DNA from: Phycisphaeraceae bacterium
Lineage (GTDB): Bacteria; Planctomycetota; Phycisphaerae; Phycisphaerales; Phycisphaeraceae
NCBI GenBank assembly: GCA_963674705.1
Contig: OY771506.1
Coordinates: 3,168,001-3,232,000, forward strand
Direction of reading: 5' to 3'
DNA: 64,000 nucleotides
The notes beneath the pieces are model-generated. The model was not told where the DNA came from and ran no database searches. It worked only from the letters and a program-made list of their open reading frames with translations. The position numbers were made by a program, and so were the translations under genes. Position 1 is the stretch's first letter. Each line of letters starts with the position of its first letter. This document shows positions 24,492 to 29,535 of the stretch, in pieces.

Positions 24492-25184
24492 CTACGCTCC
24501 AGTTCTTTTGTGATGTTGGTTCGGCGGTTCCGCAAGCCGGGGGGTAGGCCAACATCGCGCTGGCGTCGGTCCGTAACCCTGAACTTGAACTTCTCGGCCG
24601 TGCTCGCCGGCGCGGGTGGCCTCGATGGCGGCATTGAGCGCCAGCAGGTTCGTCTGATCCGCGATATCGTTGATCACATTGATGATCTGGCCGATCTGTT
24701 CGCCACGCTTACCGAGTTCAGAAACGCTGGCGGCACTGGCGTCCACCACCTCGGCGATCGATTGCATGCCTAGGATCGTGTCTTTAATCACCTCGCCACC
24801 TTCCGAGGCAACACGCCCTGAGTCCTCAGCGGACCTGCTGCCTCGGTGCTCTTGCCTCCAACTTCGACGACACTGGCGGACATCTGCTCCACCGCGGAAC
24901 TGATCTGCAACTTCTGGTTTGCCTGCGTCAAGTGTCTGCTTCAAGTCAGCCAGCAGAGCCTGTGTGTCAAAAGTACCCTCGTTATTCAGTCGTGAGGTGT
25001 GGTTTTTGGCTTCATCGGCGACGGCGGTGAAGGACGCGGCTTTCTCGACCAGGCCGGCTTCCGGGGTGTGGTAGTACATATTCGCTATCACAGCGTAGTT
25101 CACCGCAACGAGGGAAAGGATCGCAAGCACGACGATCGCAATGATTCTGGTCCGTAGTGTGATTGAATGAAGGAAGTGACTCAT
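24492..25184 (-). pseudogene. internally deleted methyl-accepting chemotaxis protein
   Basis: N-terminal TM and start of a sensor domain joined directly to IADQTNLLALNAAIEATRAGEHGR, then an abrupt end before GFAVVA; no second TM or HAMP. Confidence 0.8.
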
Positions 25185-25440
25185 ACTCAAACTCACCTTT
25201 GCTGTTAAAGGCTTACCCCGCCCAGGAGTACTTCGCATCTGCAACGCTAACGCGCGAACAAGTGATCCCGCAGACAGGGTTTGGATCGGGTCTGGATATG
25301 AAAGACTTAATGCTATATTTGTTGATGTGGCGTGAGGTTATCTCGGGTATTGAGATCGGCAAATCTGTACTAACCTGTGGGTCACTCAGGTGAATCCACC
25401 TGCACTTCACGCTTGCAAATACAGTGCTATCATGATCTTT

Positions 25441-26980: not shown

Positions 26981-28198
26981 ATGGTGCTCAGTTCACAAAC
27001 ACCCCGCGCAGGCATGTCCAGGATGTACATGTCCTCCAGGCGGAAGTCCGGTGCAAAGTGGGGCTGGTTGTTTTTGATCGGTGTGGCATTGGTGTCATTG
27101 TGGATGTTTGGCGTCTTCTCGGGCGGTGATTCCGGGGCAGGCACGGAACAAGGGGGGATAAGCCCGGCCAGTGCCAACGCCGATCCGGGCGCGTCAGGTG
27201 GGATGGCTCTGGATCCAGCCGAAGCCGACTCGCGCCGCCCCCAATCCGTAAATGAACTACCGCCTGCCAGCAGCAATCCGACGCAAGCCTCAGAGCCAGT
27301 CACGTTGACTATCGGTGTGGGAGAAACCCGCAACGCCACGACCACAACTTCTCAACCGCCAAGACAGTCGGTTGCTTCCCCGAACACGTCGGATCAATCC
27401 AACCGGTCGACGACACGCACTTCAAGCAACGCCGGCACCGAACTGAATCGCGGCATGAACCTGATCCGTGAAGGCCGGCTCGTTCAAGGCCGGCGCGTTC
27501 TAAGCCAACTGCTGACCGCTGATAGCGGGAGCCTCTCGGCGCTCGATGCCCAGACGGTTCGCGACACGTTAGCCAGCGTCAACAAGCAACTGGTCTTTTC
27601 CGATGAAGTGCTGCCCGGCGATCCGCTGGCCGAGTCCTACGTCGTGCAACGCGGTGACTACCTTTCGCGGATCGCGCCGAAGTATGGCGTTCCTTATCAG
27701 TTCATCGAGTTGATCAACAACACCCCGGCCGAACGGCTTCAGGCCGGCAAGGCGATCAAGCTGATCAATGGGCCTTTTAATTTACGTATCAGTAAACGTG
27801 ACTTCCGGATGGATGTTTATGTCAATGATAAAGACGGCACGCCGTTGTATATCCGAAGCTTCACTGTAGGTCTTGGTGAAGCGGATTCCACACCGATGGG
27901 ATCATTCGTTATTGCACCCGGTTCGAAGGTGGAAAATCCTTCTTGGCGCAACCCACGCACGGGTGAATTTTTCGGGCGTGACGATCCGAAGAATCCGATC
28001 GGTGAATACTGGCTTGCATTAAAAGGAACCGACCCGCAGTCTGAATCGCTTAGTGGTTACGGCATTCACGGCACGATCGATCCGGACTCCATCGGACGCG
28101 AAGCCTCGATGGGATGTGTCCGTATGAGCGACAAGGATATTAAACTTATTTACAATATGCTTGAGCCCGGCAAGAGCACCGTGCAGATCACCTGGTGA
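26981..28198 (+). CDS. LysM + L,D-transpeptidase (YkuD) protein
   Basis: N-terminal TM; LysM YVVQRGDYLSRIA; catalytic GIHGT...SMGCVRM. Confidence 0.92.
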   Translation: MVLSSQTPRAGMSRMYMSSRRKSGAKWGWLFLIGVALVSLWMFGVFSGGDSGAGTEQGGISPASANADPGASGGMALDPAEADSRRPQSVNELPPASSNPTQASEPVTLTIGVGETRNATTTTSQPPRQSVASPNTSDQSNRSTTRTSSNAGTELNRGMNLIREGRLVQGRRVLSQLLTADSGSLSALDAQTVRDTLASVNKQLVFSDEVLPGDPLAESYVVQRGDYLSRIAPKYGVPYQFIELINNTPAERLQAGKAIKLINGPFNLRISKRDFRMDVYVNDKDGTPLYIRSFTVGLGEADSTPMGSFVIAPGSKVENPSWRNPRTGEFFGRDDPKNPIGEYWLALKGTDPQSESLSGYGIHGTIDPDSIGREASMGCVRMSDKDIKLIYNMLEPGKSTVQITW

Positions 28199-28389
28199 TG
28201 AGGTTGTCGCCGACATTAGATCAAGAGCTATGGTGATTATAAAAATGTCAGGCTGGTTAAACTGGGTTATTTAAGGCCGTTAATCCTGATTACTCAGTAG
28301 TTTCCGGTCGGCGAAAAGAGGCTAAAAACAGCAAGAAATTGCCCGCAAACGGTTGCTTTACGGCACCGCAGGTTATATATTAATAATGC

Positions 28390-28672
28390 AGATCGCGGAG
28401 GGTGAACGGAGGAGGAGAAACCACCGCCCACCTTAGCCGAGAGTGTCGTGTCTGAAAAGACACGTTTATTTTCGTGCTATCGCTGACTGCTGCACCACTG
28501 CTTGGAGGGGAATCCGTATGGTAGTGGTGTATTCACACGGCCCAAAACCGTGTGCAACAGGATTCCGTGATACAAGAGCCTGGGTATCTAAGCCCGAGGT
28601 TCGTATCCCGAAATAAGCTTTCTCCCCTCCGTGGTGACCGGGCGCGATGCATCGCCCCGGCCGCCTTTTTTT
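28390..28672 (+). ncRNA. candidate large structured RNA, family unrecognised
   Basis: Promoter TTGCTT(28353)-N17-TATATT; end-to-end pairing 28406-28420/28619-28632; four internal hairpins; GC hairpin plus U7 terminator; lies between convergent genes. Confidence 0.65.
28633..28672 (+). terminator. intrinsic terminator
   Basis: GGTGACCGGGCGCGATGCATCGCCCCGGCCGCC followed by TTTTTTT. Confidence 0.85.
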
Positions 28673-28785
28673 ATGCGCCGACCACACTCATTCCCGAAGC
28701 GCTTTGTTGATGTAGGTATATACCCTTAGGTGCGCAATAGGTGCATATTTGGATTTGTGGAAATAACAACAATTCAACGGCAAGC

Positions 28786-29535
28786 TTAATCGCCCATCAG
28801 CACAAGTTCGTTTCGGATCGCCCGCAGCACCTGCAGCTGCTCAGACGACCACGCGGTTGGGGATGGCGTTGGGGATGGCTCATCATCATACCTGTCGTCA
28901 CCTAAGCCGGCGGATTTGGTCGCTTTGAGTTTGACCATGATCCGGTCACGCAACGCCCAGGCGTCGGCGACGCCCTCGACACGTCCCTGATTGAGCGCGG
29001 CTTGTGATTGGTCCTGGCCGCCACCCGAGCCGGCGGTTTCTACGATCAGGTCAGCGATACCGAAGTGGCGTTGGAGCGGGCCCTGGACGACCTTGACGTT
29101 CTGAACGTTTTCAAACGTGAAAGTCATTTCGTGGATGATCCAGATGCCCCGGCGGATACGCAGGCTGCGGTCACTCATCACGTACCACGTCGTGTCGTAC
29201 TTCAGATGAACCGCGACATAGGCGACGATGTCCGGCAAGACAGCCAAGGCCAACGCCGGTATCGCCAGCAGTATGCCCGCCACTGGCACCGCTATGGTTA
29301 ACACCAGCCAGCCGATGAAGATCGCGATGTCAATAATGAGTAGCCCGATCCAGAACCAGAGCTTCAGATACTTCAAAAAACCTATTGCGGGTTTGAACGC
29401 GTCCGGTTCTTCCCCGGGCTCGGTCGGCAGGGTGGGGGGCGTTTGAGGCACACGGAACCAGTTGGACAGAATCTGCCAGGTCCCGGTGTACAAAAACTCC
29501 GCCGCACGTTCGGTCTGTTTTTCAAGCGCTGCCAT
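28786..29535 (-). CDS. bacterial PH (bPH_2) domain membrane protein
   Basis: Two TMs then LRIRRGIW, NVQNVKVVQGPLQRHFGIADLIVETAG. Confidence 0.88.
   Translation of the reverse strand: MAALEKQTERAAEFLYTGTWQILSNWFRVPQTPPTLPTEPGEEPDAFKPAIGFLKYLKLWFWIGLLIIDIAIFIGWLVLTIAVPVAGILLAIPALALAVLPDIVAYVAVHLKYDTTWYVMSDRSLRIRRGIWIIHEMTFTFENVQNVKVVQGPLQRHFGIADLIVETAGSGGGQDQSQAALNQGRVEGVADAWALRDRIMVKLKATKSAGLGDDRYDDEPSPTPSPTAWSSEQLQVLRAIRNELVLMGD

Follow-up and report, generated by a model that had tools for sequence, protein, structure and literature searches.

A predicted structured RNA of one planctomycete clade carries the C-rich seed of a putative order-wide small RNA

A folded RNA between convergent genes

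Does the space between the convergent genes at positions 26981-28198 and 28786-29535 of the window encode an RNA of its own, and if so, what could this RNA do? The window is the whole stretch of DNA that was analysed, 64,000 nt from the genome of a Phycisphaeraceae bacterium (assembly GCA_963674705.1, contig OY771506.1, positions 3,168,001 to 3,232,000; G000 hereafter). The first gene (+ strand) encodes an L,D-transpeptidase with LysM and YkuD domains and the second (- strand) a bPH_2 membrane protein, and the original prediction had placed between them an independently transcribed, structured RNA. That location is correct, and all the sequence elements it named were found in their places when the sequence was re-read. 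Judging from conservation and predicted folding, positions 28388-28672 (+ strand, ~285 nt) are a real, conserved and folded non-coding RNA (ncRNA) confined to one planctomycete clade. As for the overall interpretation, independent transcription and a structural competition at the 5' end hold, and the hypotheses of a 6S-like RNA and of a locked mRNA do not.

The predicted promoter is of the sigma70 type (28353-28381, + strand), with a -35 element TTGCTT (28353-28358), a 17-nt spacer and a -10 element TATATT (28376-28381), and would place the start of transcription at G28388. The TTG of the -35 element, the -10 element and their spacing are retained in all 13 homologous sequences described below, as is the start motif (G/A)CAG. 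At the other end, a GC hairpin (28633-28665) followed by U7 (28633-28672 in total, + strand) makes up the terminator that had been proposed; it is retained together with its U-tract in 13/13 homologs, and all 13 of its pairs are invariant. A consensus scan for promoters and terminators had neither the 28353-28381 promoter nor the 28633-28672 terminator in its list. A second conserved non-coding stretch, common to the loci L020 and L030, lies ~130-60 nt upstream of the promoter, after the stop codon of the transpeptidase gene.

According to BLAST, the RNA is present as a single copy in nine of the ten other genomes of the genus; the tenth, which is 76% complete, lacks both the RNA and the gene upstream of it, and no second copy was found in G000. 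A covariance model applied with strict filters matched 11 of 144 genomes of the family, including one new genome of a second genus, and two of the 23 matches from a pattern scan of metagenomes were additional homologs, the other 21 being due to chance. The resulting alignment comprises 13 distinct sequences from two Phycisphaeraceae genera, with a mean column identity of 78%. All 13 lie downstream of the same L,D-transpeptidase gene, which we treat as context only, and bioD or other genes occupy the place of the bPH_2 gene in some of them. Searching with a 25-mer and three mismatches gave matches in 10 of 401 genomes of the order and no distant homologs; the RNA was absent from all 20 syntenic L,D-transpeptidase loci inspected in other genera, and from the viral contigs, plasmids and phages searched. 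Two separate features of this genome may be recorded here: a short ORF (window positions 24492-25244, - strand) that includes part of an MCP signalling domain and looks as if a chemoreceptor gene had been scrambled or had lost an internal piece, and a cluster of 30 tRNA genes (G000:C1:622407-634804, - strand; ARAGORN), all on a single strand over ~12 kb, which resembles mobile-element tRNA arrays.

Comparison with Rfam had been suggested as a check, and a search of the window against Rfam 15 at the gathering score gave no match here; at a lower threshold, the best match within 28200-28800 had E = 3. The statement that the RNA lacks the hallmarks of RNase P, tmRNA and SRP is borne out, the model of each family exceeding its cut-off elsewhere in G000 and not at this locus. 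Resemblances in motifs to a T-box, a cobalamin riboswitch, RNase P, domain V of a group II intron and Y RNA were considered and dropped because no model matched and the similar stretches are not conserved. With no fitting Rfam family, the hypothesis of a new, independently transcribed structured ncRNA stands.

Hints of expression come from eight RNA runs of four studies in which a small portion of the region is represented; one run from each study was compared with it. Three of these runs gave contigs of close relatives that were confined to 28410-28618, with starts at 28410, 28410 and 28414; the fourth (X2) yielded a single contig, 28566-28727, which runs past the terminator, and none confined to the RNA. 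Since neither the strand and ends of an RNA nor its level can be read from such contigs, and RNA libraries can contain DNA, we take them as a weak hint; that the flanking genes are uncovered in these runs proves nothing by itself.

Two competing folds

The 283-nt strand folds with a predicted energy of -127.4 kcal/mol (z = -7.2; 0/200 shuffles equally stable), and z ranges from -2.0 to -6.1 across all 13 homologs. Its 5' domain (28388-28490, + strand) is a three-way junction closed by GCAG (28388-28391) pairing with CUGC (28487-28490) and by a second closing helix; inside lie hairpin H1 (28400-28433) and a long variable hairpin (28434-28479, + strand), of which the structure is retained and the sequence free. 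In the minimum free energy structure of the first ~102 nt, the closing helices and the variable hairpin recur in 13/13 homologs and H1 takes the same form in 12/13. Compensatory changes are found at four of the nine closing pairs.

Three G-rich boxes that resemble RBSs are embedded in this RNA. Box 1 (GCGGAGGG(G)UGAA, 28395-28406, + strand) is complementary to the seed described below and is the predicted catch site for a short sRNA; it is degenerate in one homolog (L004). Box 2 (ACGGAGGAGGAGAAA, 28406-28420, + strand) has two alternative positions, in a duplex with the seed of the same RNA or within H1, whose loop displays AGGAGAAA; its CGGAGGAGGAG portion is invariant in 13/13. Box 3 (GGAGGGGAA, 28504-28512), also invariant, is apical in a hairpin (28492-28532, + strand) whose outer helix shows compensatory changes at three of four pairs. 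Then follow a hairpin CACACGG/CCGUGUG (28534-28554, + strand; 96.7% of cells paired), in which an A-U/G-U exchange favours the + strand, and a helix GAUAC/GUAUC capped by a variable hairpin (28566-28610, + strand), recovered in the homolog folds and in a pairing check. The terminator is directly preceded by the C-rich anti-SD seed CUUUCUCCCCUCCG (28618-28631, + strand), which is invariant and common to a family of short sRNAs and to hsp20 and htpX 3' ends. For the composite of 5' domain, three downstream hairpins and terminator, 97.1% of cells are paired and eight pairs have changed on both sides (0/500 shuffles), a comparison in which kin sequences can beat the shuffle control and the structure derives from these same sequences.

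The smaller helices of the original prediction fared unevenly. Two elements present here, the GNRA loop of the hairpin 28447-28464 and the helix of TTATTTTCG with CGAAATAA, are not conserved across the homologs, and at the site of the GAGCCT..AGGTTC hairpin a hairpin is retained while its sequence is free. The putative pseudoknot GGAATCC/GGATTCC has 93.6% of cells paired, one compensatory change and five unpaired cells. The long-range helix between 28406-28420 and 28619-28632 was found as proposed, with 98.9% paired and no covariation, because both of its strands are near-invariant. The competing 5' structure was also recovered, in the form of the covarying three-way junction, which excludes the long-range helix. 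When full-length sequences were folded, the 3' strand lay on box 2 in some of the homologs listed, while others had it on box 1, and the alternatives differed little in energy. In these models, the RNA has two mutually exclusive folds, the 5' three-way junction and the long-range helix of seed and box.

Type I toxin mRNAs such as hok and aapA1 sequester their SD sequentially, an early 5' fold yielding to a long-range 5'-3' anti-SD helix. The long RNA resembles them in opposing an early 5' fold to a long-range anti-SD helix, but differs from them in having no conserved ORF. A translationally locked mRNA for a 32-aa ORF had been among the first hypotheses; box 3 is SD-like and sits 9 nt 5' of an ATG in 6/13 homologs, and the closing helix of 5' and 3' ends and the metastable 5' fold would, by analogy, recall such mRNAs. 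Against this, the ATG is absent from 7/13 homologs, the products of 17-54 aa have no peptide in common, and Pfam gave no match. A type I toxin mRNA in particular, which needs a conserved small ORF behind its SD, was rejected, the start codon being missing in 7/13 and lengths and frames being variable. The other early hypothesis, a divergent 6S RNA, conflicts with the multi-branched fold and with the presence of a 6S-like rod elsewhere in the genome; the sole RF00013 match in G000 lies away from the long RNA and scores 36 bits, below the cut-off. We consider both identities highly improbable and for the most part already excluded. The sub-cut-off match itself (G000:C1:3994574-3994692, - strand; L012), a rod with a central bubble, is likely the 6S RNA of this genome.

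The RNA could also sequester CsrA/RsmA, given that CsrA-domain genes occur in 31/31 relatives, with three in G000, and that each RNA carries 7-10 GGA motifs, the AGGA in the H1 loop being one clear loop site. Most of these motifs, however, are in stems or paired with the seed, they seem sparse for 285 nt of GC-rich RNA, and the most conserved part of the molecule, its C-rich 3' end, would be superfluous to a CsrA sponge. We regard this role as quite unlikely.

The seed family and its candidate targets

A search for complements of the invariant 3' segment uncovered, beyond anything in the original prediction, three further exact copies of the 14-mer CTTTCTCCCCTCCG in G000, which follow hsp20, M48 peptidase (htpX-like) and ROK kinase genes in the sense of the nearby transcripts. 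All four exact 13-mers of this genome lie directly 5' of a terminator, and seven control patterns had no exact match. The 14-mer is present in 58 of 61 genomes of the family (reversed control, 0). Among 30 seed loci examined, 27 have the same terminator hairpin, 17 have a ROK kinase gene nearby (tblastn), and most have their own promoter of the TTG..N17..TAAAAA type followed by a short 5' segment. By these sequence features, the loci define a ~90-nt sRNA across the order, located after ROK-kinase/gatA genes and with 0 matches to Rfam at E <= 5.

An 18-mer with at most one mismatch was found in 48 of 71 genomes of the order (control, one match), with family counts of 14/15 (f1), 10/16 (f3), 10/11 (f4), 10/11 (f5), 1/1 (f6) and 2/16 (f2); a search of the 1.5 kb that follow gatA at 25 loci of f2 found no variant seed. 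In the phylum as a whole, the 14-mer occurs in 13 of 161 genomes, and one of eight matches examined outside the order has a terminator-like end. The short form is present in 10/10 examined genomes of the long RNA's clade, and the htpX copy in G000, G009 and G010. In G000, the short sRNA locus (C1, ~4073550-4073640, - strand; L148) comprises its own promoter, a 5' hairpin, an open seed and the conserved terminator. Seed and terminator also stand at the ends of hsp20- and htpX-like transcripts (G000:C1:5104651-5104664, + strand, L149; G000:C1:234308-234321, - strand, L138); such 3' ends are possible 3'-UTR-derived sibling sRNAs. Action in cis, with the 3'-UTR seed on the RBS of its own mRNA, is not supported, as duplexes with the hsp20, htpX and ROK RBSs reach only -6 to -11 kcal/mol. 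At two other loci, the seed is joined to a different terminator: L115 (G084), where the pair stands 3' of a PEP-CTERM gene, and L124 (G020), a very short unit that stands alone and has a promoter-like sequence to itself.

RsaE, LhrC and RNAIII are C-rich anti-SD sRNAs. The present seed is similar to those of RoxS and FsrA, in the available part of their description, in being a C-rich stretch complementary to G-rich ribosome-binding sites, and unlike all five in being a different 14-nt sequence, invariant across the order and always joined to a terminator. A full-text literature search with the seed in RNA and DNA letters, which leaves subscription journals outside its coverage, returned no paper. 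In the literature searched, no paper was found to describe an sRNA system acting by base pairing in Phycisphaerales, and nothing relevant appeared on planctomycete sRNAs or on PEP-CTERM together with sRNA; supplementary tables of large motif screens may list either RNA.

Targets of the seed were scanned in G000 on the basis of crude predictions of genes and their starts, which assigned a start to 3,853 genes. Predicted seed:RBS duplexes of -15 kcal/mol or stronger were obtained for 71/362 PEP-CTERM genes, 26/859 other genes with signal peptides and 53/2,632 remaining genes, counts in which start calls are surer for PEP-CTERM than for other genes and paralogs are not independent. The PEP-CTERM set comes from a local HMM (362, ~360), and at least 150 of its members are confirmed by Pfam (150 of 355 candidates were scored, and all match). 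When genes of similar SD strength are compared, the excess persists in four of the five bins; in the fifth, the weakest, neither group has strong sites. It also persists against a control with shuffled flanks of GGAG, at -12.6 versus -10.6 for the shuffles (sd 0.12) in PEP-CTERM genes, with no excess in non-PEP genes. The excess recurs in 1.2 Mb of G009, where strong sites occur in 8/40 PEP-CTERM genes (0/200 shuffles). G013 has 0/46 strong sites and no excess; these loci have 72% GC, and its lone exact 13-mer has no terminator after it. Strong PEP-CTERM sites number 0/26 in genus g17, though the seed is in 16/16 genomes, 0/7 in family f4 and 2/8 in G037, though no seed was detected there. Because g17, f4 and G037 break any general rule, PEP-CTERM mRNAs are a lead for the long RNA's genus only, where they are candidate targets of the seed.

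That no target common to several genera was found would agree with another role for the 14-mer and its terminator, namely a protein-binding or 3'-end-protecting element, with the long RNA as a scaffold or decoy for a protein, ribosomal components or RNA polymerase, for which Ms1 provides a model. The occurrence of the motif at the 3' ends of mRNAs and sRNAs alike and the unusual invariance of the terminator sequences in long and short forms point the same way. Nevertheless, such an element leaves the conservation of three complementary boxes in the same RNA unexplained, and the excess of RBS complementarity in two genomes of the genus suggests pairing; we judge it unlikely.

A proposed sponge or locked repressor

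The long RNA has the same 3' seed as the short sRNA and three sites matching it, and is therefore probably a sponge for, or a locked version of, that sRNA, two readings that are compatible and not exclusive of each other. We tentatively favour, with somewhat less than even confidence, a lineage-specific RosA-like sponge for the order-wide C-rich anti-SD sRNAs, in which a copy of the seed locks one of the boxes.

RosA of Bacillus subtilis is described, in the part of the source available, as an RNA of ~225 nt with its own sigmaA promoter and terminator and three G-rich regions that can pair with the C-rich seeds of the sRNAs RoxS and FsrA, two of these regions (GRR1 and GRR2) being single-stranded (PMC8216469). 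The long RNA is similar to RosA, as portrayed there, in its own promoter and terminator and in its three G-rich boxes facing a C-rich seed. In contrast, its boxes are part of a covarying fold, and, unlike RosA as described in that part (PMC8216469), it bears an exact copy of the seed. No sequence homology between the two was found (Rfam without match). CrfA of Caulobacter is a stand-alone RNA masking the target-pairing site of the sibling sRNAs SisA-D, and CrfA/SisA-D were found among Hfq-bound RNA pairs, according to the available part of the source (PMC12559287). The masking of sibling-sRNA seeds by one RNA that we propose is alike, as far as that account goes; unlike there, Hfq was not found in G000, and pairing would therefore be Hfq-independent. 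In the literature searched, no sponge was found that bears a copy of the seed and keeps that copy locked. We know of no sequence common to CrfA/SisA-D and the long RNA.

According to the proposed mechanism, the first ~100 nt would fold during transcription into the three-way junction, shielding boxes 1 and 2. After synthesis of the 3' end, the RNA's own seed would settle on one box, and the long RNA would therefore not repress mRNAs itself. The second box would stay free and capture the single-stranded seeds carried by the short sRNA and by its hsp20/htpX 3'-end siblings, and this capture would lift repression from mRNAs with purine-rich RBSs, PEP-CTERM mRNAs being the best candidates in the genus.

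Several observations are consistent with a sponge. The three complementary boxes are conserved, and the short sRNA co-occurs with them in the ten clade genomes examined. The predicted probability that the seed is unpaired is 0.49-1.0 in short forms (22 folded, 6 skipped) versus 0.08-0.31 in long forms (9/9); the single-stranded seed of an anti-SD sRNA is thus not predicted for the full-length long RNA, and refolding or cleavage could expose it. Predicted binding of long to short RNA amounts to -8.5 to -15.7 kcal/mol in 9/9 same-genome pairs, weakest with the degenerate box 1, and co-folding yields it because boxes outnumber seeds in the long RNA; in the three dimers listed, the model puts the long RNA's own seed on box 2 and the short sRNA on box 1. 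This is a modest gain over chance, as 1/60 shuffled long RNAs bound as strongly (mean -7.5, sd 2.2), and low-complexity G/C-rich strands pair readily. The strongest PEP-CTERM leaders have tighter predicted seed binding than the dimer, down to -20, and covariation lends no support to seed:box pairing because boxes and seed are near-invariant. A pure sponge has no need of its own seed and terminator module, which counts against this reading.

The module is invariant in 13/13 homologs, which fits a second reading of the long RNA as a locked sibling of the short sRNA. It would then be a repressor itself, with its boxes clamping its seed in the absence of a signal. The seed may be freed by refolding to the 5' junction, by heat, by a ligand or protein, or by a cut that yields a ~55-nt piece with seed and terminator. 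Folds with the seed on box 1 and on box 2 differ by at most ~5 kcal/mol in 12/13 of the homologs listed, the covarying fold of the 5' domain conceals both boxes, and sibling seeds stand at the ends of heat-shock transcripts. The starts of the RNA contigs at 28410-28414 in three studies, with none beyond 28618, would fit processing or a strong closing helix, but contigs show neither RNA ends nor strand. Three boxes exceed what a lock requires. We hold a locked sibling to be possible, though doubtful. Sponge and repressor could also be two states of one bistable RNA with a seed and three decoy sites, acting as a sponge when the seed is locked and as a repressor when the 5' junction is folded and the seed free; this we think rather unlikely.

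The sponge and its alternatives all concern two new RNA families, a clade-confined long RNA and a ~90-nt RNA of most families of the order, which have a 14-nt seed in common, defined promoters and testable partners. Together they offer a first lead on how PEP-CTERM proteins may be regulated post-transcriptionally in a genome in which Hfq was not detected. Were the bistable reading true, the long RNA would be a single-molecule switch governing an sRNA network of planctomycetes and tying heat-shock 3' ends to the translation of this genome's large set of PEP-CTERM surface proteins.
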